Assembly (NCBI RefSeq): GCF_003991155.1
Contig: NZ_CP031295.1
Reading direction: 5' to 3' (one strand)
Length of the DNA: 64,000 bases
Source of the DNA: Escherichia coli
GTDB taxonomy: Bacteria; Pseudomonadota; Gammaproteobacteria; Enterobacterales; Enterobacteriaceae
In this document: positions 18,239 through 30,861 of the stretch, one piece after another
Numbering within the stretch: the first letter of the stretch is position 1
Layout of the letters: each line of letters begins with the position of its first letter
Position numbers and translations under genes: made by a program
Notes under the pieces: generated by a model
Database searches by the model: none
Seen by the model: only the letters and a program-made list of their open reading frames with translations
What the model was told of the DNA's origin: nothing

Positions 18239-18525
18239 AAAAACCTCTACGATGTGTTCTTATATAATAATATATATCATATTTTCACGATTAACATAAT
18301 ATCTTCGTTAAGAAAACAACAGAGCAAAATTTGTTTTTTTTTGACAGGCATGAAATGAGCCAGCATAATTATATTAATTATTATCCCAAATGAGTTTTTG
18401 TATTTGCTCATTCGGGATGGTTGGATATTTTAAGTTATATCTACTGTATCATTCTCAGGTAATCGTTCCATTAAATCAGAAACTACGGGCTGTAACCAGT
18501 CAGTGACTTCACTCACATACTGATG

Positions 18526-19992
18526 TCATTCGGGATGCCTGGAGGCCAGATCCATCACTCGTGTTAACCCGGACGGACGATCAATGCCCAATTTAGTTAA
18601 AATATTCGAGATATAATTATGAGCATCAAGTTCAACTCTGATATCCCTTGCTGCTTCGATTATTTCTAAATATTCGCCACCCAATCCGTCCAGTGGGACA
18701 TTTGTAATAAGATAATGAATGTATTGTTCAGGCTTAACCCCATTTGGGAGATTAAATTGTTTTACTTTTCCTTCCGCTGCCGCTTTTAACTCATAAGTTC
18801 GTGATTCTGTGCCGGTGAAAACTTTATCACGAGCAGTTTTCTTTTCATTTTCTGTGGAATATTTATCGCCATCAAGAATATAAAGTTTACCAGATAGATT
18901 GTCACCACGAATAAGGGTACTGGCAAGTAGAGTGAATGCGTTTGAAGCTGCGCCAAATTTAAATATTTTTACATATTTGCTGGCCTTAAGTGAAGAACAT
19001 ATTTTATTTATTATGGCAACAGCTAAGTCATCTTCTACATATATTTCAATAGGCGTCGTTGATTCACCTGTTAATCTGTTTATAGCATCAGGTTTTGTTT
19101 CTTCAAATGAATAACTACGGCCTTGAATGTTTACGACGTGTCTTATATTTATCTTGTCTGATAAAGTGGTTATCATTTCTCTATGGGTAGTAAAGATGAT
19201 TTGTTTGTTTTTATCTTTGGCATGAGATGATATGACTTCTATTAACTTTTTCAATGCTTCGTCATGCAACAATAAATCTAATTCATCAATTAATATTAAG
19301 GCGTTCTTGTCCGCTTTCAATATTGTTTCCAGAATTAAAAATATCTTTTGCTCTCCTGCGCTCATACTCAATGATGAGTAGGCCAGTCCCCCTGACTCAA
19401 CTCCAATCAATATTTTTCCATTGGGTTGTTGATGCTGATTGAAACTTGTGTATGGTTTATTAAGTATATAGGAGGCGTAATGAAGAATGTTTGTTATTAA
19501 ATCATTACTGACACTGCTGGTTTCATACTGAATATTATTCTTTTTTTCTGATTCTATTATAGGAACACATTTATCAATGCCAAGATAGTAAACTTCTCTT
19601 AAAGGACGACGAGCATAAATCTGAATCCATCGTGAGCCTCGAATATCTGCTTTTCCATAATTTTTCAATTCATTTTCAATCATTACCCCATCTTTACGAT
19701 AAGTTAAATTTACAATGAAGTCACTGCCGTTCCATTCAGCATGTGGGCTGCGTGGAAAAAAATGCATTAACCGATGGTCTTCACCGGGGAAACCTTCTTC
19801 AGGCATGTATATGCTTGCTATAGCATGGAGTATTGTTGATTTTCCGCTTCCATTTGGACCTAAAATTGCGGTTAACGCATGAGGTTTAAAAATAATCTCG
19901 TTTAATCCATTTATACATTTTAGTTTGTTAATTTTAATGGAGTTCAAGACTTGACCAGTAATGGTTTTTTTATTTTTTTCTGCCATTTTCAA
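18526..19992 (-). CDS. OLD-family ABC ATPase-TOPRIM nuclease (defence-associated), apparently solo
   Basis: Walker A GPNGSGKST, signature/Walker B LSMSAGEQK...ILIDELDLLLHDE, H-loop FTTH; C-terminal TOPRIM-like IEIYVEDD and YILDGDKY; AT-rich. Confidence 0.55.
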   Translation of the reverse strand: MKMAEKNKKTITGQVLNSIKINKLKCINGLNEIIFKPHALTAILGPNGSGKSTILHAIASIYMPEEGFPGEDHRLMHFFPRSPHAEWNGSDFIVNLTYRKDGVMIENELKNYGKADIRGSRWIQIYARRPLREVYYLGIDKCVPIIESEKKNNIQYETSSVSNDLITNILHYASYILNKPYTSFNQHQQPNGKILIGVESGGLAYSSLSMSAGEQKIFLILETILKADKNALILIDELDLLLHDEALKKLIEVISSHAKDKNKQIIFTTHREMITTLSDKINIRHVVNIQGRSYSFEETKPDAINRLTGESTTPIEIYVEDDLAVAIINKICSSLKASKYVKIFKFGAASNAFTLLASTLIRGDNLSGKLYILDGDKYSTENEKKTARDKVFTGTESRTYELKAAAEGKVKQFNLPNGVKPEQYIHYLITNVPLDGLGGEYLEIIEAARDIRVELDAHNYISNILTKLGIDRPSGLTRVMDLASRHPE

Positions 19993-20248: not shown

Positions 20249-20839
20249 TTACGGGGTGACGCTTTCATTAACCTGTACACGAACCTCCATTCCGGCATCG
20301 TGACAGGCCTGCAGCCACTGCGCCACTTCCAGCGGATCGCCCTCCAGGCGTACCACCCTGCCTTCTTTATTCCATAACTGCAGACAGGTGCTGCCGTCGA
20401 GACGTACCACAAAATCCCCACGGCAGGCCTGATACGTTATGCCGTTCAGCTGCACCGCCAGATCAGTGGCAGAAGTGCCGTCTGCGGGCAGACCTGCTGC
20501 CGGGACCAGCGGCAGTACGACGACTTCTGCCGCACGCTGTTCTGCCCGGAGGCGGTCCTGTTCTGCCAGCAGCAGAGGCTGTGCCACGGCCCGGCCGGCG
20601 TCCGTCAGCTCGACAGCCAGCTGCAGATTCGGGGCGCGCAGGGTACGCAGCCAGCCGGCATCCTCCAGACGACGGCAGGAGGCGCGCAGGTTTGGCCCGT
20701 AGACCGGGGCTTCCCCGCTTCGCTCCAGCACCCGTTCCAGGTCCCGCGTCAGCACGGGGCCCGGCCGTTTTTCATCAAGCGCAGCCAGCACAATCAGCAC
20801 TCTCCGCTGCAGTGGCGACGGTCGGCGGCTCTGGGTCAT
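20249..20839 (-). CDS. hypothetical protein, GC-rich, possible winged-helix N-terminus
   Basis: 196-aa ORF, GC-rich codon usage distinct from neighbours; translationally coupled to upstream 85-aa ORF. Confidence 0.4.
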   Translation of the reverse strand: MTQSRRPSPLQRRVLIVLAALDEKRPGPVLTRDLERVLERSGEAPVYGPNLRASCRRLEDAGWLRTLRAPNLQLAVELTDAGRAVAQPLLLAEQDRLRAEQRAAEVVVLPLVPAAGLPADGTSATDLAVQLNGITYQACRGDFVVRLDGSTCLQLWNKEGRVVRLEGDPLEVAQWLQACHDAGMEVRVQVNESVTP

Positions 20840-21096
20840 TACCTGTCATCCTCCGGCCAGATGAGGTTTCTGAGGCGCTGAAAGTCGGCGTCAATGAGCT
20901 CCTGTCTCTTTATGGCATTCATTGAGGCATAGCCATTTATGGCCAGTTCATGCCAGAAGATCAGCACGGCTCCGGCTTTGGCTGACTCGCAGAGATAAAT
21001 CGCGCCCTGGCTGTCCAGATTGCATTCCCGGATGCGTTTTTCCGCAAACCGGGTCAGTTGTTCATAGCTGAGTGAAAACACCCTTTCTTCATCCAT
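20839..21096 (-). CDS. hypothetical small protein (85 aa)
   Basis: ORF whose stop overlaps start of 20249-20839 gene. Confidence 0.35.
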   Translation of the reverse strand: MDEERVFSLSYEQLTRFAEKRIRECNLDSQGAIYLCESAKAGAVLIFWHELAINGYASMNAIKRQELIDADFQRLRNLIWPEDDR

Positions 21097-21449: not shown

Positions 21450-23588
21450 ATGGACATTGAAATACGCCACTGCAATAACATCGTACGAGCACATATCACC
21501 CTCACTGCCGATAAACTGAACATTAAGTTTGCGCCAAATGGTACTGGAAAAAGTACGCTGTCACGGGCCATAAGCTGTGCGGCGCGGGACGACATTCAGG
21601 GACTACAGGCACTGATGCCCTTCCGGCTGCGCGGAGAAAACCCCGATAGCACCGGGCCCATTGTCATCGGTGCTGACGGGATTGGGGACGTGATGTGCTT
21701 CAACGAGGAGTACGTCAGTCAGTTTACGTTCCAACCGGACGAGCTCATCAGTGATAGCTTTAATATTCTTATCCGCAATCAAGCCCATGCGGAAAGAGAG
21801 CGTGAAATAGAAGAAATGACGCAAAAGATCCGGGCTGTTTTCACGGATCACACTGAGCTGAACTCTCTGATAGACCATCTACAGGAACTCAGTAATGCTT
21901 TCAGATCAACCAGTTCCGGGATTTCACGTTCTTCAACCGGCATGAGAGGTCTGTCAGGCGGAAATAAAATACACCACATTCCGGCTGGTCTTGAGAACTA
22001 TCAACCCTACATCCGCAGTGAACGCCGCGTGGAATGGATTGACTGGCAGACAAAGGGACTCGAGTTTTCGCCCCTTTCGGATGGCTGCTGTCCGTTCTGT
22101 ACCGGTGATATCACGGGAAAGGAAGCACAAATTCGCCAAGTCAGAGAGGAATACGATAAATCCACCATTAAAAACCTGACCGCTATCATCAGACTGGTGG
22201 AAAACCTCGGTAATTACCTGACGGAGAGCGCCAGAGAACGCCTTCTGGCCATTACTATGCTTCAGAACGGTCCGGAAGCCGAACATATCGAGTACCTAGT
22301 GGCGTTGAAACGCCAGACCGATACGCTGACAGAGAAACTCACTGCGCTGAGAGGCCTGAATGTTTTCAGCCTGCAGGAACAGCAGAACGTTCGGGAGGTG
22401 CTCACTGCCAGGTTGATTGACCTGCAGTTCTTCCCTGATCTGCAATCCGAACTCATGCAGGGGATCACCGACAGACTGAACGCGGCCCTTATGGACCTGA
22501 TAAACCTTGCCGGACCGCTGCAGGGAAAAATTAACCGGCACCGGGACAGCATGATCCGGCTGATCGCACAGCACAAAACAAACATCAATAATTTCCTCAC
22601 TTATGCAGGCTATAAATACAGGGTGGATATAGCCGGCGAGGGAGAGCAGAGAAAACTCAGGCTACGACACATAGATTTTGACGGGTACGTCAGCGGCGGT
22701 AGCCAGCATCTCAGCTATGGAGAACGGAACGCCTTTGCGATTGTGTTATTCATGTATGAATGCCTGTCAAAAAACCCGGGACTGATTATCCTTGATGATC
22801 CCATATCTTCTTTTGATAAAAACAAGAAGTTTGCCATTCTTGAAATGCTGTTCAGACGTGCAAGTGGTGAATGCCTGAAGAACCGGACTGTACTTATGCT
22901 GACGCATGACGTGGAGCCTGTGATTGACACGCTGAAGTCAGTCAGAAGGTTGTTCAGTAATCAGGTGACCGCCTCCTGCCTGCGCCTGTCTGCTGGAGTC
23001 ATAGAAGAATTACCTGTTAACGACGGCGATATCATGACATTCATGCAGATCTGCAAATCCATCACCGCGTCAGCAGACTGTGAGGAGATCATTAAGCTCA
23101 TCTATCTTCGTCGCTACTTTGAAATCGTTGACGAACGTGGTGATGCTTATCAGCTTCTATCCAATCTATTCCATCGACGCGTCGTCCCGCTGGATTATCG
23201 CGAGCCTGCCGCTGCGGGCTCGGGCTATCCCAAAATGGCTCCTGAGAAAATTCAGCAGGCCTTGCGGGATATCCGGGAGTATGTGGACAGTTTTGATTAC
23301 CCGCGACTTCAGGCTCTCGTCAGCAGCCCAGATGAAATAAAAAACCTGTACCGTCGCTGTCGTAACGGCTATGAAAAACTGCAGGTATTCCGTTTACTGG
23401 AACTGGATCAGGACCATCCGGTAATACGAAAATTCGTTAACGAAACGTACCACATTGAAAATGAGTTCATCTGTCAACTAGATCCGTCCAGATTCGATCT
23501 CATCCCGGAGTACGTGATTATGGAATGTGACAAGCTCATCGCCCTGCCACCGGCAGCAAACCAGAGCTCGGTTGCCCGTATCGCTTGA
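21450..23588 (+). CDS. SMC/Rad50-like ABC ATPase with CxxC hook and C-terminal effector-like domain (RloC/PrrC-like candidate)
   Basis: Walker A APNGTGKST (aa~30); CCPFC (aa~223) in predicted coiled-coil insert; signature LSYGERNAF, Walker B LIILDDP, H-loop LMLTHD (aa~440-495); approx 210-aa C-terminal domain. Confidence 0.5.
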   Translation: MDIEIRHCNNIVRAHITLTADKLNIKFAPNGTGKSTLSRAISCAARDDIQGLQALMPFRLRGENPDSTGPIVIGADGIGDVMCFNEEYVSQFTFQPDELISDSFNILIRNQAHAEREREIEEMTQKIRAVFTDHTELNSLIDHLQELSNAFRSTSSGISRSSTGMRGLSGGNKIHHIPAGLENYQPYIRSERRVEWIDWQTKGLEFSPLSDGCCPFCTGDITGKEAQIRQVREEYDKSTIKNLTAIIRLVENLGNYLTESARERLLAITMLQNGPEAEHIEYLVALKRQTDTLTEKLTALRGLNVFSLQEQQNVREVLTARLIDLQFFPDLQSELMQGITDRLNAALMDLINLAGPLQGKINRHRDSMIRLIAQHKTNINNFLTYAGYKYRVDIAGEGEQRKLRLRHIDFDGYVSGGSQHLSYGERNAFAIVLFMYECLSKNPGLIILDDPISSFDKNKKFAILEMLFRRASGECLKNRTVLMLTHDVEPVIDTLKSVRRLFSNQVTASCLRLSAGVIEELPVNDGDIMTFMQICKSITASADCEEIIKLIYLRRYFEIVDERGDAYQLLSNLFHRRVVPLDYREPAAAGSGYPKMAPEKIQQALRDIREYVDSFDYPRLQALVSSPDEIKNLYRRCRNGYEKLQVFRLLELDQDHPVIRKFVNETYHIENEFICQLDPSRFDLIPEYVIMECDKLIALPPAANQSSVARIA

Positions 23589-23749: not shown

Positions 23750-24166
23750 TTACTTCACCCAGTCTTCCAGCACCAGGTCAGGCACTCGCTCAAATTCTCT
23801 TGTATTATTCGTTACCAGTATCGCCCCGGCGGCGATGGCGTGCCCGGCAATCGCCGTGTCGTTCGGGCCGATCGGCGTCCCGGCCAGCCGCAGTGCCACT
23901 TTAATCTTCGTGGTGGCGTCTACTGCGGCGCGATCCCAGGGCAGGATGGCATCGAGGCGGGCGCAGAATTCATCGACCAGTTGGACGTGACGTGGTGAGG
24001 CCTTTGGGCCGGTAGCCCCGAAGCGCATTTCAGAGTAGGTGATGGCCGAGACCACTATACGGTGGCCGCGTAGCACCGCCTGCTCCAGACGCTTCAGGAC
24101 GGCTTCTGGCTGTTCACGCATGATGAACGAGCAGATACAGGTATCAAGCATATAAGTCTTGTTCAC
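23750..24166 (-). CDS. vapC: VapC PIN-domain toxin
   Basis: 138 aa MLDTCICSFIMREQP...; PIN-domain acidic residues; overlaps vapB stop. Confidence 0.85.
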   Translation of the reverse strand: MNKTYMLDTCICSFIMREQPEAVLKRLEQAVLRGHRIVVSAITYSEMRFGATGPKASPRHVQLVDEFCARLDAILPWDRAAVDATTKIKVALRLAGTPIGPNDTAIAGHAIAAGAILVTNNTREFERVPDLVLEDWVK

Positions 24167-24393
24167 AGGTTAAATCGCCCTTCGTCGCTGACAACATCCT
24201 CGCGCTCCGCCATAAAATCTGGATCGGCTTTTTCGTACTCTAGGAATGATCCCCAGGTTGGCCGGACGGGGCGCAGGATGATGCTGTCCCCTTCCCGGAC
24301 GATCTCGAGCTCGCTCACCCCCTCAAAATCCAGATCACGAGGCAGACGGATGGCGCGGTTGTTGCCATTTTTGAATATCGATACGGTTCTCAT
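24163..24393 (-). CDS. vapB: VapB antitoxin (AbrB/SpoVT-type)
   Basis: 76 aa MRTVSIFKNGNNRAIRLPRDL...; 4-nt overlap with vapC. Confidence 0.85.
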   Translation of the reverse strand: MRTVSIFKNGNNRAIRLPRDLDFEGVSELEIVREGDSIILRPVRPTWGSFLEYEKADPDFMAEREDVVSDEGRFNL

Positions 24394-24407
24394 GTTTTTT
24401 CTCTCCC

Positions 24408-24540
24408 GAGCATATGGATATGTGAAACATATCCGGAATATTCAAAGCACCGGGTGTGTGCATATGTTTAGTATAGGCAGATGTGTGGCATATGTATAGC
24501 GGTAGCATATGTAGATGCCAGGCATATGTTTAGCATATCT
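24408..24540. promoter_or_regulatory. array of about six GCATATGT repeats upstream of vapB (putative vapBC operator)
   Basis: Repeated CATATG-core motifs spaced about 15-25 bp immediately upstream of vapB start. Confidence 0.4.
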
Positions 24541-24688
24541 CTATTTCTTTCTTTTTTATCGGAGATCCGAAAAAAGGTTAAGTCTGATCTTAATGAAATT
24601 ACATGGAATTTGAGTGATATCCCTTACCCCACATCTCCAACGTGCTATCTATAAAGGTTGATACATCTCACTTAGTCCGGAGGTTGTT

Positions 24689-24979
24689 ATGAGCGTCAAA
24701 ATCACAGGTTTAGACAAAATGCAGAAACAGCTAAAAGAGGTTGAGAGAGCAACAGAGGCATTAAACGGAAGTTATGATGTCCACTTCGATGCTAACGATC
24801 CTGTCAGCATTGAGAACGCGATTCAGGAAGCCTATTCCATGGTGTACGAACGCGCTTCTGGTTATGCCACTAATCCGATGGTCAGCCCATTAATCGAACA
24901 CATGAAAGAAAATCTGCGCCAACAGATTCTGGACAGAGCAGAACAACAAAGACAGGAGAGCGGGCAGGATGGCAATTGA
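24689..24979 (+). CDS. hypothetical small protein (96 aa), first gene of TIR-like cassette
   Basis: ORF with RBS-like GGAGG upstream; 11-nt overlap with next gene. Confidence 0.45.
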   Translation: MSVKITGLDKMQKQLKEVERATEALNGSYDVHFDANDPVSIENAIQEAYSMVYERASGYATNPMVSPLIEHMKENLRQQILDRAEQQRQESGQDGN

Positions 24980-25868
24980 TATCTTTCAGTCACTTAAAAA
25001 TTGCGTATTCGACCTTCAGCGCGCTGACGTTCAGAACTATCAGCAACCTCTTAAGCAATTGGCCCGGCTCTTGAACTCAGAGAATCTGCAGTCAGTTAAT
25101 GCACATCTGACCCGCAATGTTGAACTTGATACCTTTCTGGCCAGGAGTGAAGATACTGAATCCAGCATGGCTGGTTCCGCTGTTCTACAGTGGCCTGATG
25201 AGCCCGCTGATATTTTGGGCCTGAAGTTGCTGCTGATCGAGAAAATGGCAGACGATAACAATTTTTCCTTTAATTTCTGTCATACATTTTTCTATGATCG
25301 AAACATTATTGAATCCATTCGAAAATTCACGTCGTCATTAGTTGCCCCGTTCGTGCGCGATTACCAGTTGTATGTGGAAAACCAACACGATCCTGAGCCT
25401 GCAGTGTTTCGGCCGGTTTCCCGAAAAATTTTTATTGTTCATGGCCATGATAATGATGCCCTTCAGTCTGTTGCCCGTTTTATATCCCGGATAGGTCTTG
25501 AGGAAATCATTCTTTCAGAACGTCCTGACGGCTCCAGGACGATTATCGAGAAATTTGAAGCAGAGTCAGGGGATGTCAGTTTTGCCATCGTGCTGATGAC
25601 GCCCGACGATAGCGGCAGTGCTCTGGCATCTGAAAGCACACGTCTCCGCGCACGCCAGAATGTCCTGTATGAGCTCGGATATTTCGCCGGGAAGCTTGGA
25701 CGCGGGAAAGTACTTGTACTCAGGAAGGGAGATATCGAAATCCCTTCAGATCTTGCCGGGGTTCTCTATACCGAGCTTGATGAGCATGGTGGATGGAAAC
25801 GCAAACTGCTGAGTGAGCTTGCGTATGCCGGTGTTCCTTTTGACAAGGATAAAGCATTAAGCGCCTGA
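24969..25868 (+). CDS. TIR-like-domain protein (PF10137-type C-terminus) with unknown N-terminal domain
   Basis: C-terminal motifs KIFIVHGHD, AIVLMTPDD, RARQNVLYELGYFAGKLGRGKV, EIPSDLAGV typical of predicted nucleotide-binding TIR-like proteins. Confidence 0.55.
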   Translation: MAIDIFQSLKNCVFDLQRADVQNYQQPLKQLARLLNSENLQSVNAHLTRNVELDTFLARSEDTESSMAGSAVLQWPDEPADILGLKLLLIEKMADDNNFSFNFCHTFFYDRNIIESIRKFTSSLVAPFVRDYQLYVENQHDPEPAVFRPVSRKIFIVHGHDNDALQSVARFISRIGLEEIILSERPDGSRTIIEKFEAESGDVSFAIVLMTPDDSGSALASESTRLRARQNVLYELGYFAGKLGRGKVLVLRKGDIEIPSDLAGVLYTELDEHGGWKRKLLSELAYAGVPFDKDKALSA

Positions 25869-25917
25869 TCTCCTTCATTTAGTAAGAAAAAGGCCGCTAA
25901 GCGGCCTTAATTTTTGG

Positions 25918-28143
25918 TCAGTCGTCATTTTCCAGCGCTGTTTTGAGCGCTTCCTGCTCCGGAGTCAGCTCGTTGCCGGACAGCATAACCTTCAACTTCT
26001 CTTCGACTGCTGGCCAGTCATCAAAGAACGGACTGACCTGGTCACGCGCAATCCGGCGATATGCCCCTCGGTGGGAGCTGAAGACACTGGTCTGTAATCG
26101 TATCAACAGGTTAACAAGGCCTTCATCAGTGGTAGTAACTTCTCTGACCCATTGCTTCACGGTTTCACCTGAACTCATGTCTCTCCAGGCGTAGAGATAC
26201 CCGAGAAGAGACTTGCGCAGGAGAAGCTGTTGCTGAAGTTCTGGTTGATTCATACGTTCCGCAAACCTGTCACGCAACCGTTCCGTAATATCGCGACTGA
26301 AAAGAGCGTCTGAAGGCGAAGGTACTGCATTCTGAGCAAGTCCATGTTCCCAGATAAGATCCCGCATAAAATCGGCTATCCAGAACGGCGAAGCACCCGT
26401 AACGATCAGTTTTTCCATAAGCGTGATCGTTCTGGTCTCATCAATATCCTGCATATGCTTCAGCAGATGCCGTACAACCTCATTAATGGCCATTTCACGC
26501 AGGGAAAACCATGGGTTACGGATACTGAAGCGAGTGCTCACCTCATCGGTGTGATCGAAGAAAAAATGAACCAGTCCTGCGCACTCTTCGAAATTACGTT
26601 CTCTTATCAGGCCTGGAGTCAGTCTGCTCAGTATATGTTCAAACCAGGTTCCGGACAGACTGCCCACACTGTTGATTTTTGAGAGCAGCAATTCAGAAAG
26701 CTGCTGCTGTTTTTCCGATACGCCAGCCTGTTCAAAAAGCTGTCTGAAGAATTCAGGTGGCAGAACATTCTGTGGTGAGGAGAAGGCAAAATAATATCGC
26801 CAGTGCGTCAGGCTGCTGAGTCGTTTACCGGTCGTCTGGATATGACGAAAATCCTCACTGACGGGCTCAAAAAGATTCAGATATTCATCATTATGTCCAC
26901 TGATACCTGGGATCCAGTCTGCAAGTGTCAGAAACGAGTCTGCATTTGATGCCCTGAACGTCTTCATACATCTGATAAGCCCCTCCCGGAAGTCTGCTTT
27001 CTCTCCGTCAGAAAGCATACCCTGACCGGTTTCAATCACGGACCGTTCTGTCAGGTAATGCTCTGTCCAGTCATACAGAGCCGGGTTTGTCACCCGTATA
27101 AGCTGAAGCAGGCACAAATCAGGGAAATAAACAAAATCCCGCATCCCCGGATAAAGAAAAATCAGGGAATTAATGGCCTGATGGATTTCCCGTGGCGTCG
27201 AAAGTGCGGCACCATAGGTATCAGTCACCGCGATGAGATCCCTTACCATTCCAGAGTCTGGCGGTTGATTATTAATTTGCTGATATAGAGCCTCAGCCCG
27301 CTGGCGAAATTCATTACGTAAATCAAAGGCTTCAGGTCGGGGTAATTTAAAACTAAGCTGAATGATTTTCTGGAGATAACGGCTGCCATCTTCGATATTC
27401 AGCGCATGTTCAACGGCATGAGTGATAATCTGCCTGTCATAACAGAGAATATGGGTAAAGCGGGGCAGATCGGCTACTGCACGCACAAGCCTGAACACTT
27501 CCGCCACCTGGGATGGCTCCAGTCGGTCCAGATCATCCATGACAACAATGAACTTCAGATCCAGACTCACCAGTTGTCCTGCAATTTCAGCCCGAAGCTT
27601 TGTCGTGGTTTTCTGATCAACAGCCAGACGGCTGTCTGAAAATACCTTTATTCCGCCTGCTATCCAGTTAATAATGCTGGAAAACTGTCCGATATATTGA
27701 ACCAGTGGAAGGACGCGCGATGAAGTATCCTGAGCATACTCAATCACTTTTTGAGCTTCCGGTGACAACAGATATTTACGCCAGAGCTTTTTGAAGCCCT
27801 TCGGGGGATAGCGTATTTCCATTTCCTGCTGGATAACCGTGGCAACCGGAAGAAAGAGCGCTTCAACCGGACTGCCGCCACTCAGCCAGGGAGAAATATG
27901 CAGCACATGCGTGTGAGCATCTTTTTTCAGGGCAAGGTTTCTCAGGATCAGATTAAGGAGGCTTGTTTTACCCGATCCCCATGCACCTTCTATTCCGACA
28001 ACATTTGAAGCCTCCAGAGGAAGAGTAAGGATGGAACGGGATATATTTTCTGCGATATTACCGAAACCGTATCGATCCTCAGGTACATCTTCAACTGCCG
28101 CATCAAGCCCTTTCTGGTTCCACAGCTGCCTCAGTATCTTCAT
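25918..28143 (-). CDS. KAP family P-loop NTPase
   Basis: 741 aa; Walker A GAWGSGKTS, Walker B FIVVMDDLDRL; large size typical of KAP NTPases. Confidence 0.6.
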   Translation of the reverse strand: MKILRQLWNQKGLDAAVEDVPEDRYGFGNIAENISRSILTLPLEASNVVGIEGAWGSGKTSLLNLILRNLALKKDAHTHVLHISPWLSGGSPVEALFLPVATVIQQEMEIRYPPKGFKKLWRKYLLSPEAQKVIEYAQDTSSRVLPLVQYIGQFSSIINWIAGGIKVFSDSRLAVDQKTTTKLRAEIAGQLVSLDLKFIVVMDDLDRLEPSQVAEVFRLVRAVADLPRFTHILCYDRQIITHAVEHALNIEDGSRYLQKIIQLSFKLPRPEAFDLRNEFRQRAEALYQQINNQPPDSGMVRDLIAVTDTYGAALSTPREIHQAINSLIFLYPGMRDFVYFPDLCLLQLIRVTNPALYDWTEHYLTERSVIETGQGMLSDGEKADFREGLIRCMKTFRASNADSFLTLADWIPGISGHNDEYLNLFEPVSEDFRHIQTTGKRLSSLTHWRYYFAFSSPQNVLPPEFFRQLFEQAGVSEKQQQLSELLLSKINSVGSLSGTWFEHILSRLTPGLIRERNFEECAGLVHFFFDHTDEVSTRFSIRNPWFSLREMAINEVVRHLLKHMQDIDETRTITLMEKLIVTGASPFWIADFMRDLIWEHGLAQNAVPSPSDALFSRDITERLRDRFAERMNQPELQQQLLLRKSLLGYLYAWRDMSSGETVKQWVREVTTTDEGLVNLLIRLQTSVFSSHRGAYRRIARDQVSPFFDDWPAVEEKLKVMLSGNELTPEQEALKTALENDD

Positions 28144-28144
28144 A

Positions 28145-29236
28145 TTACAGATCTCCGTACAGGCAGCGCAGCCCGGTCAGGGCCTCCGCCAGCGGGCCTT
28201 CTTGACACCGCGTGGCGAGCTCCCGGACCAGCGTCTCAAAGGCCTCCGCCGGCATAAAAATCCGCAGGCCGTCTATCCCGAAGAAGCCCTCCGGCGTGAC
28301 GTTTCCGGGCGGGGAGAACATCACTCGCTCCCCCTGGTGACCGTGCGTCAGGGCTTCCGGATGCCGGGCATACAGCGTGAACAGGCCCAGCAGTTCGGAT
28401 AACGCTTCCCAGCCGTACGGCACCACGAAGTCCTGGCCGGTGATCAGCAGGTGCAGACGGGGTGTGGTGTACCAGGCCCCCGGGCGTTCTCCGGGGTGCT
28501 GGCCGTCAACGCGGATCTCCAGGCGCAGCGTGCCGGCCTCAATGGTTTCCGTGACGGCAGAAATAACCGGGCGCAGCTCCTGTGCCAGCGTTCTTGCCTG
28601 TTCTGTGTTCCAGTCCAGGCCGCGCAGCATCAACGGGAAAACAGCTTTCAGCCGCGGCAGGGTGAAGATTTCTGCCAGCACCGCGTCCGGCACCTCCGCC
28701 AGGCCAAAACAGTCGCTCTCGAGCGGACGCAGGAGGTGTTCGGCATACATCTGATCCACCACGGGGCGCAGCGCTGCCCGGAAGGCTTCAAACTCTTCCG
28801 TCCAGTTTTTCCCGGCCAGGCGGAAAATCCCCTTCAGGTAGTGACCGTCCACAGGGCGATCGTGCTCCACCTGCCAGGCCAGCAGGTTGCCAGTGATGTC
28901 CAGCAGCGTGTCCAGGGCCGGGAGTGTGGCCAGCCTATTATGCCCGCGCAGGAAGGCCTCCCTGACGTGAACCAGGACAAAGCGCAGTTCGTCGCGGGAG
29001 AGCGCTGACGTGCCGAAGGTCTGGCCCAGAATGATATGCCGGTACAGCTGCCGGACCGTGGCCTCCGGATCGGCAATGAGCTGAAAATACCCGTCACCGG
29101 GCGCGACCGTTTTCAGGCCGTCATCGAGGAAGCGTTCGGCTAGGGCGTTGACCGAAGTATTTTCCCGACCGGCACGCGTTTTCAGCGCCTCGATAAGTTT
29201 TTTGTGAAAACGCAGGTTAAGCTGGCTTAGCATCAT
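28145..29236 (-). CDS. ribbon-helix-helix (Arc/MetJ-like) domain protein with large uncharacterised C-terminal domain
   Basis: N-terminus MMLSQLNLRFHKKLIEALKTRAGRENTSVNALAERFL resembles Arc-type RHH; GC-rich; stop overlaps KAP start (ATGA). Confidence 0.45.
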   Translation of the reverse strand: MMLSQLNLRFHKKLIEALKTRAGRENTSVNALAERFLDDGLKTVAPGDGYFQLIADPEATVRQLYRHIILGQTFGTSALSRDELRFVLVHVREAFLRGHNRLATLPALDTLLDITGNLLAWQVEHDRPVDGHYLKGIFRLAGKNWTEEFEAFRAALRPVVDQMYAEHLLRPLESDCFGLAEVPDAVLAEIFTLPRLKAVFPLMLRGLDWNTEQARTLAQELRPVISAVTETIEAGTLRLEIRVDGQHPGERPGAWYTTPRLHLLITGQDFVVPYGWEALSELLGLFTLYARHPEALTHGHQGERVMFSPPGNVTPEGFFGIDGLRIFMPAEAFETLVRELATRCQEGPLAEALTGLRCLYGDL

Positions 29237-30171: not shown

Positions 30172-30861
30172 ATGGCTGACTGGTTTATTGCGACCGAAGG
30201 CGTGAAGGTGGTGAAGGACAGCGCCAGTCTGGGGCCGCAGATAATTACAGCTGTATCGACCATCGCATCTGCTGTCGGAGCGGTGTTCCTTACTCACCAC
30301 TTCACACTCAGACGTGAGGAGAGAACTGCAGCAGCGAAGCTGGCCAGCGAGCGTCTTTACATTAGTACAGAGCTGGTTTTTTTACTTGAGCGATTTGCGC
30401 AGCGTTGCGCTCCAGCAGCAACAGCAACTGTGGAGCACGATCAGGATGGCAGAGGAGAAGCTGAGTTCTTATTACCGGAAATCGATTATTCCCCGGTATC
30501 TGGTAACTGGCGCTCCCTTCCTTCTGGCCTGATGTATAGGCTCAGCGAACTCTCTGTTCTCAGCTACGAAGCTGTCGTGTGTGTAGATAATGTGTTTGTT
30601 GAAGATACTCCTTATGGTGGAGCGGGTGAATATAGTTTGCATAAAAACGCAGCTATGTTGGGAGTAAAAGCACTGCGGTTATCACGAGAACTGAGAATGT
30701 TATGTGGCCTCCCTCTGCACGGCCTTTCCGATACACTATCGCCAACGAGGTTGGTATTGTTGAAAGCCAGAGGTAAAACACTCCAAAAGGAGTACGAAAT
30801 GGTAAAGAAGTCTAAAAAGACCGAGCAAGAGATTGAGGATTTCATAAAGGGGACATCATGA
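30172..30861 (+). CDS. hypothetical protein with N-terminal hydrophobic segment (229 aa)
   Basis: Hydrophobic stretch IITAVSTIASAVGAVFL; 4-nt overlap with following recombinase gene. Confidence 0.4.
   Translation: MADWFIATEGVKVVKDSASLGPQIITAVSTIASAVGAVFLTHHFTLRREERTAAAKLASERLYISTELVFLLERFAQRCAPAATATVEHDQDGRGEAEFLLPEIDYSPVSGNWRSLPSGLMYRLSELSVLSYEAVVCVDNVFVEDTPYGGAGEYSLHKNAAMLGVKALRLSRELRMLCGLPLHGLSDTLSPTRLVLLKARGKTLQKEYEMVKKSKKTEQEIEDFIKGTS

Follow-up and report, generated by a model that had tools for sequence, protein, structure and literature searches.

YuaX and a CAP12-type TIR protein form an apparently obligate gene pair, a candidate two-component abortive-infection system carried by plasmids F and R64

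Introduction

Depletion of NAD+ by TIR domains is a known defence strategy, and the way in which standalone TIR effectors sense infection is known in few cases. Among the described systems, the closest to the locus analysed here is Cap12, the TIR-STING protein of CBASS (SfSTING, PDB 7un8 and 9lmq). Characterised members of the CAP12 TIR clade are NADases activated by oligomerisation and toxic if unregulated, and a glutamate of TIR-STING is catalytic (10.64898/2026.04.30.722052). PycTIR of Pycsar (PDB 8jsj) carries a TIR domain of the same Pfam family at its C-terminus, and needs a cyclic pyrimidine signal from PycC. Two compact abortive-infection NADases of mobile elements, SpbK (from ICEBs1 of Bacillus subtilis) and Swarozyc (DUF4062), are TIR or TIR-like proteins that have a non-TIR region at the N-terminus; SpbK is activated directly by a phage portal protein (PMC11984713), and so is Swarozyc (10.64898/2026.05.01.722283). 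Thoeris (ThsB with ThsA or other effectors) is a two-gene TIR operon in which the TIR protein makes a signal for a separate effector.

We describe here a pair of overlapping genes, yuaX and a TIR gene, found in a stretch of 64,000 nucleotides from Escherichia coli (contig NZ_CP031295.1), the whole of which is called the window below. The TIR protein shares with Cap12 its PF10137 TIR domain, for which Cap12 is the best match in both sequence and fold, and the glutamate motif NV(V/L)(F/Y)E(F/L)G; by analogy, the expected chemistry would be NAD+ hydrolysis after oligomerisation. The layout differs. In Cap12 the TIR domain is N-terminal, the STING sensor C-terminal and a CD-NTase is required, whereas here the TIR domain is C-terminal, preceded by a helical domain proposed to be the sensor and accompanied by YuaX. 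PycTIR has its TIR domain at the same end, but no PycC gene is present here and similarity does not extend beyond the TIR core. SpbK and Swarozyc are single-gene systems with an unrelated TIR subfamily and unrelated sensor regions, whereas YuaX appears to be an obligate second subunit; an SpbK-type TIR domain is nevertheless found on some members of the N-domain family. The two-gene layout recalls Thoeris, but the TIR domain occupies what looks like an exchangeable effector slot, and its partner is a small helical protein. Part of the TIR protein is already covered by models of the PADLOC candidate PDC-S35, as a single gene, PADLOC covering neither YuaX nor the N-domain up to about residue 100; N-domain proteins with transmembrane tails give weak matches to another candidate, PDC-M14B. 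In the literature searched, we found no functional study of the YuaX/TIR pair and no published function of PDC-S35 or PDC-M14.

Results

Two overlapping genes encode YuaX and a TIR-domain protein

The elements of the locus are listed below, in window coordinates.

24679..24683, plus strand: Shine-Dalgarno sequence GGAGG of yuaX, 5 nt 5' of the ATG, read from the sequence
24689..24979, plus strand: yuaX ORF, 96 aa, ATG start
24954..24958, plus strand: Shine-Dalgarno-like AGGAG within the 3' end of yuaX, 10 nt 5' of the ATG of the TIR gene, read from the sequence
24969..25868, plus strand: ORF encoding the N-domain and TIR domain, 299 aa, ATG start; product identical to WP_000963206.1 of F and R64
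24969..25379, plus strand: N-terminal all-helical domain, residues 1-137, seven predicted helices (pLDDT 90-97)
25425..25865, plus strand: CAP12/Pycsar-type TIR domain, residues 153-299, proposed NADase effector
25671..25673, plus strand: codon of Glu235 (NVLYELGYF), putative catalytic glutamate
25890..25908: terminator-like hairpin AAGGCCGCTAAGCGGCCTT, bidirectional, between the convergent TIR gene and pifA

A preliminary description, made from the sequence alone, had read two overlapping ORFs at this place, the second one encoding a TIR-like C-terminal domain behind an unrecognised N-terminal domain, with no cyclase or ThsA adjacent. Both ORFs and their overlap were borne out, and the four motifs that it quoted (KIFIVHGHD, LMTPDD, RARQNVLYELGYF and EIPSDLAGV) are all found in the 299-aa translation. 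Judging from their homologues, both are real genes rather than chance ORFs: full-length homologues of the 299-aa product, at ~50% identity, are present across Proteobacteria, and the 96-aa product has 1318 homologous clusters in a profile search, nearly all of 93-96 aa, with conserved columns throughout. The overlap between yuaX and the TIR gene, 11 nt long, suggests translational coupling; in the lineages looked up, relatives of the two genes overlap by 4 bp or are separated by 0-3 bp.

The TIR-like domain of the 34 kDa TIR protein was readily confirmed. It corresponds to Pfam PF10137 (CAP12-PCTIR_TIR) over residues 153-271 and model positions 1-118 of 119, with an E value of 7.9e-37. An AlphaFold model built on a 91-sequence alignment (mean pLDDT 83.7) is divided into the helical N-domain (1-137), a low-confidence linker (138-152) and an alpha/beta domain (153-299) of flavodoxin-like fold, whose best structural matches are Cap12 TIR-STING structures. 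Glu235 does not vary among the 91 homologues, and its counterpart in the Cap12 structures 9lmq and 7un8 is the E of NVVFEFGLF. As for the N-domain, its first ~140 residues had no match in Pfam, PDB sequences or PADLOC, and it does remain unrecognised, as the preliminary description had it.

Beyond the TIR core, the protein was not assigned to any of the described systems. With the NCBIfam Cap12 equivalog NF050171 it scored 42 bits, against a cut-off of 450, over residues 204-272 only, and the PADLOC match to PycTIR was limited to residues 189-271 (E 1e-9). No match to ThsB or ThsA was found in PADLOC, which leaves it outside Thoeris. Five PDC-S35 models matched, with a best E value of 2.3e-65, but only from residues ~102-146 to 295; the single-gene definition of PDC-S35 does not hold for the N-domain subfamily, which is linked or fused to YuaX (linked in 54 of 55 loci, see below). 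A match was also obtained with PHROG family phrog_16442 (unknown function, 287 aa), over residues 134-289 (E 1e-46). As this family matches the TIR part and not the N-domain, phages must encode a CAP12-type TIR protein whose N-terminus is different again.

YuaX (11 kDa) is an acidic protein (pI 4.8), predicted to be soluble and made of three helices, without enzymatic or membrane features. It had no Pfam-A match in the release scanned, which does not contain PF27363; its assignment to this existing Pfam entry, YuaX, of unknown function, comes from the precomputed label of clusters 99% and 94% identical to the ORF (P0125 and P0129). The window YuaX shares 41-54% identity with PF27363-labelled proteins encoded upstream of distant relatives of the TIR gene. 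No match at all was obtained in PADLOC, and neither a DNA-binding fold nor a known antitoxin fold was detected. YuaX does not derive from a partial duplication of the N-domain (hhalign probability 0.1%), and a match to the small terminase subunit family phrog_8823 (E 2.8e-4 over 41 residues) was too weak to be used.

The absence of a known partner next to the pair, which the preliminary description had pointed out, was verified as well: neither a cyclase gene nor ThsA adjoins the pair in the window, where it is surrounded by vapBC and by the genes for a PDC-S06 ATPase, PifA and PifC. A CD-NTase cyclase gene was found neither around the pair in the window nor in those related loci that carry Pfam labels.

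YuaX accompanies the N-domain

The association of the two genes was analysed in a scan of 80 loci, taking one genome per species, in which six-frame ORFs were searched with HMMs built from our own alignments. Of the 55 species-level loci with a gene for an N-domain+TIR protein, 54 had a yuaX gene directly before it in the same orientation. It was found in none of the 25 species-level loci where a closely similar TIR domain stands behind another N-terminus. The single N-domain+TIR locus without YuaX (L061) is related to the fusion loci described below, and has lost the YuaX part. Starting from the other side, look-ups with YuaX of P. aeruginosa, Bordetella and Pseudoalteromonas led in each case to an N-domain+TIR gene downstream. 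The yuaX-TIR linkage was observed in 7 lineages looked up independently, these among them, and the same gene pair was present on all 8 testable viral contigs. On one viral contig (L108, 2989-3890) the TIR gene is split, an N-domain ORF (2989-3531) overlapping a TIR ORF (3420-3890); from the sequence, this would be either a frameshifted pseudogene or a sequencing error.

In four alphaproteobacterial loci, YuaX, N-domain and TIR domain are encoded by a single ORF of ~400 aa:

L060 (Bradyrhizobium), 3674-4900
L063, 2412-3635
L066, 3659-4909
L076, 3671-4897

An exhaustive profile search with the N-domain only gave 513 representatives at E <= 1e-3, and among the best 150 of these, 23 were fusions of YuaX to the N-domain.

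Across the 54 loci, mean pairwise identity was 46% for YuaX and 47% for the N-domain, compared to 67% for the TIR domain. Pairwise distances of YuaX correlated with those of the N-domain with r 0.77, against r 0.61 for the other comparison, both values being confounded by shared phylogeny. These matched rates, faster than that of the TIR domain, and the distances are at most suggestive of a link between YuaX and the N-domain. That the locus is a two-gene module, as initially supposed, is supported both by the presence of YuaX upstream in 54 of 55 N-domain+TIR loci and by the natural fusions. We conclude that, as judged from gene content, YuaX and the N-domain+TIR protein form an obligate gene pair, in which YuaX appears to track the N-domain and not the effector.

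Several C-terminal domains are found behind the N-domain

Many of the N-domain representatives do not carry a CAP12 TIR domain. Their C-terminal parts, as recognised with PADLOC, included the following.

P0249 and P0385: SpbK-type TIR C-terminus
P0258: TIR-TM/ThsB-like TIR C-terminus
P0266: HEPN C-terminus of the Aga_HEPN / PD-Lambda-3_B type, in a protein fused to YuaX
P0337: PDC-S05/NsnC-like C-terminal domain
P0277, P0284, P0340 and P0363: hydrophobic Gly/Ala-rich or two-transmembrane tails, some with weak PDC-M14B matches

The SpbK-type variants are informative as to where YuaX belongs. The protein made of the N-domain and an SpbK-like TIR_2 domain likewise has YuaX upstream, in P0249 with an overlap of 4 bp between yuaX and the start of the gene that follows, which indicates that YuaX belongs with the N-domain. 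Upstream of P0363, which combines a divergent N-domain with a transmembrane tail, a gene of 102 aa was found (L100, 283-591). No YuaX similarity was detectable in its product, which was not retained as YuaX; it may represent another kind of partner, or a relative of YuaX diverged past recognition.

A conserved N-terminal module followed by alternative killing domains points to the TIR domain as the effector, and to YuaX with the N-domain as the sensing or regulatory part. By comparison with described systems, one N-terminal module with swapped killing domains is an architecture typical of abortive-infection systems.

The pair is widespread on plasmids, in a neighbourhood of defence genes

Window positions 24400-26000 are 100% identical to 38623-40223 of R64 (NC_005014.1), where the pair sits in the accessory 'Delta' region. 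At a coverage of at least 80%, this segment occurs on 885 PLSDB plasmids of the IncI1 and IncF types, from Escherichia, Klebsiella and Salmonella. An identical 299-aa protein, together with a variant of YuaX, is encoded on the classical F plasmid, where the pair converges with pifA as it does in the window; on both F and R64, the TIR gene is located between ibfA and pifA. Among 5426 complete E. coli genomes, 260 (~5%) had at least 80% of the pair, and 318 of the 336 matching places in E. coli were on plasmids. At the DNA level, no relative was found in the phage GenBank collection. In the Delta region of R64, ibfA and pifA are the sole genes credited with phage inhibition (PMC8004404; PMC12111858).

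Taken over its full length, the window is a mosaic: likeness to R64 is confined to 15.4-29.7 kb (99.3% identity), and the segments 24.5-29.6 and 37.2-40.1 kb (RepFIB region) are F-like. This partial likeness to R64 and F indicates a hybrid plasmid. GC content also varies strongly, from 0.59-0.66 at 5-12 kb to 0.34-0.38 at 18-20 kb. Flanking the pair are vapBC and the PDC-S06 ATPase gene at one end and pifA-pifC at the other, and ibfA is 5 kb distant:

18430-19986, minus strand: ibfA, ATPase-TOPRIM, HEC-04 homologue, inhibiting BF23/T5-like and P22-like phages
20249-20839 and 20839-21096, minus strand: two small overlapping hypothetical genes upstream of the PDC-S06 ATPase gene
21450-23588, plus strand: 712-aa ABC/AAA ATPase, PADLOC PDC-S06 almost end to end (E 5e-286), a defence candidate
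23750-24393, minus strand: vapBC operon, divergent from yuaX
25918-28143, minus strand: PifA, KAP P-loop NTPase, T7 exclusion (PADLOC E 3e-290)
28145-29236, minus strand: PifC, repressor of pifA
30172-30861, plus strand: 229-aa protein, weak PADLOC PDC-S67 match (E 1e-17)
30858-31649, plus strand: tyrosine-recombinase-like gene, overlapping the preceding one

The hairpin at 25890-25908 is common to pifA and the TIR gene, which converge on it. Relative to IbfA of R64, the window ibfA contains a premature stop (Trp487 to stop, at ~18526-18528) that removes the last 32 residues, as well as one further substitution, L to R. Between vapB and yuaX, the intergenic segment 24405-24545 holds at least 6 copies of (A/G)GCATATG(T) with 17- or 11-nt spacing, which overlap a promoter-like site of the minus strand (24498..24470). 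By its sequence, this array is probably the VapB operator array of vapBC.

In other lineages the neighbours are different, and include an OLD/Gabija-like ATPase with UvrD, an SNF2 helicase with DUF6094, T4SS/ICE genes, or prophage genes. Twenty of the nearest large neighbours were sampled from 19 species loci. Seven gave strong PADLOC matches (Hhe/PDC-S37, type I MTase, PDC-S49, GajA, type III MTase, AbiEii and AriA/Old) and 4 more gave weak ones. Defence genes are enriched around the pair.

Discussion

The reading we favour, and consider somewhat probable, is that yuaX and the TIR gene form a two-component abortive-infection system directed against phages. YuaX and the TIR protein would be made together from the overlapping genes, and, as the linkage and the natural fusions suggest, YuaX would bind the helical N-domain of the TIR protein. 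In uninfected cells, this complex would keep the TIR domains apart and inactive. Upon infection, the YuaX/N-domain module would respond to a phage-derived cue, probably a structural or an early phage protein if SpbK, Swarozyc and DSR2 are a guide. The TIR domains of CAP12 type may then oligomerise, as in Cap12, with active sites forming around Glu235, and NAD+ would be hydrolysed to ADP-ribose and nicotinamide. The resulting NAD+ depletion would arrest or kill the cell before release of phage progeny. Independent support for a role in defence comes from PADLOC, in which the TIR gene was nominated from defence-island statistics. To our knowledge, no phenotype has been ascribed to the yuaX/TIR genes in F+ and R64+ strains, despite decades of use with many laboratory phages, so that any defence they provide is probably narrow, or weak against common coliphages. 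Two loci also fit this reading less well, L061 for its lack of YuaX and L100, of a more divergent N-domain subgroup, for an upstream gene in which no YuaX similarity was detectable.

The main rival is an addiction module resembling type II toxin-antitoxin systems, in which a labile YuaX would neutralise the TIR toxin, plasmid loss or a shut-off of host expression would free the NADase, and any protection against phages would be incidental. The layout, in which a small first gene runs into that of a larger putative toxin, is typical of toxin-antitoxin operons, the pair is found on plasmids beside vapBC and, in F, near ccdAB, and TIR domains of the CAP12 clade are toxic when unregulated. We nevertheless hold this rather unlikely. 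Covalent fusions of YuaX, which are common, fit poorly with an antitoxin degraded faster than its toxin, neither a DNA-binding fold nor a known antitoxin fold was detected in YuaX, and the protein follows the N-domain and not the toxic domain; moreover, most loci are chromosomal, in defence islands, ICEs and prophages, and not on plasmids. The pair could also have a role outside defence, regulating host NAD metabolism, conjugation or competition between elements from a plasmid or an ICE. Its occurrence on conjugative plasmids and ICEs would fit such a role, as would the lack of any reported phage phenotype of F or R64 beyond pifA and ibfA. It is however hard to reconcile with the enrichment of defence genes among the neighbours, the presence of the pair in prophages and on viral contigs, the exchange of modules with killing effectors typical of abortive infection, and the independent nomination of the TIR gene by PADLOC, and we regard it as distinctly unlikely.

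Two further readings borrow the logic of known signalling systems. Since its TIR domain belongs to the same Pfam family as those of Cap12 and PycTIR, the protein might be an orphan CBASS or Pycsar effector, responding through its N-domain to a cyclic nucleotide made in trans. This is very improbable: the Cap12 equivalog score is far below its cut-off and limited to the TIR core, the N-domain is all-helical without any STING, SAVED or cNMP-binding match, no cyclase is found in the window, nor in the loci for which precomputed Pfam labels exist, and the obligate partner is YuaX and not a cyclase. A Thoeris-like arrangement, in which the TIR protein would make a signal of cADPR type and YuaX would be the responding effector, has a precedent in two-gene TIR operons with novel small effectors that were validated as new Thoeris types (10.64898/2025.12.03.692087). 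But YuaX is a small, soluble and acidic protein devoid of enzymatic or membrane features; HEPN or transmembrane modules can replace the TIR domain while YuaX stays, which designates the TIR domain as the effector; PF10137 is a clade of NAD-depleting effectors and not the ThsB clade; and a signal maker fused to its own receptor would be unusual. This arrangement appears just as improbable as the orphan effector.

Some parts of this picture are already known, namely the type of effector, the general logic, the candidacy of PDC-S35 and the Pfam entry for YuaX. In the literature searched, we found no description of the obligate architecture with two genes or a fusion of them, of YuaX as the partner of the N-domain, or of the exchange of effectors that connects PDC-S35-like with PDC-M14-like proteins. 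We put forward, tentatively and with less assurance than the abortive-infection role itself, that YuaX and the N-domain constitute an unrecognised and widespread phage-sensing module, wired to at least four kinds of effectors (CAP12 TIR, SpbK-like TIR, HEPN and transmembrane tails). If so, PDC-S35, in part, and PDC-M14 would be united in one multi-effector defence family. Being without recognisable relatives, obligately linked, and associated with exchangeable effectors, YuaX and the N-domain would be a tractable new sensor to dissect.

For the plasmids themselves, such a phage-sensing module would mean that F and R64 carry, beside pifA, an overlooked NAD-depleting abortive-infection system that has spread on IncF and IncI resistance and virulence plasmids. 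With 885 plasmids in PLSDB and ~5% of complete E. coli genomes concerned, the pair could, together with ibfA and pifA, bear on the outcome of phage therapy and on phage typing. It is also an unrecognised candidate defence gene pair present in many F+ laboratory strains.
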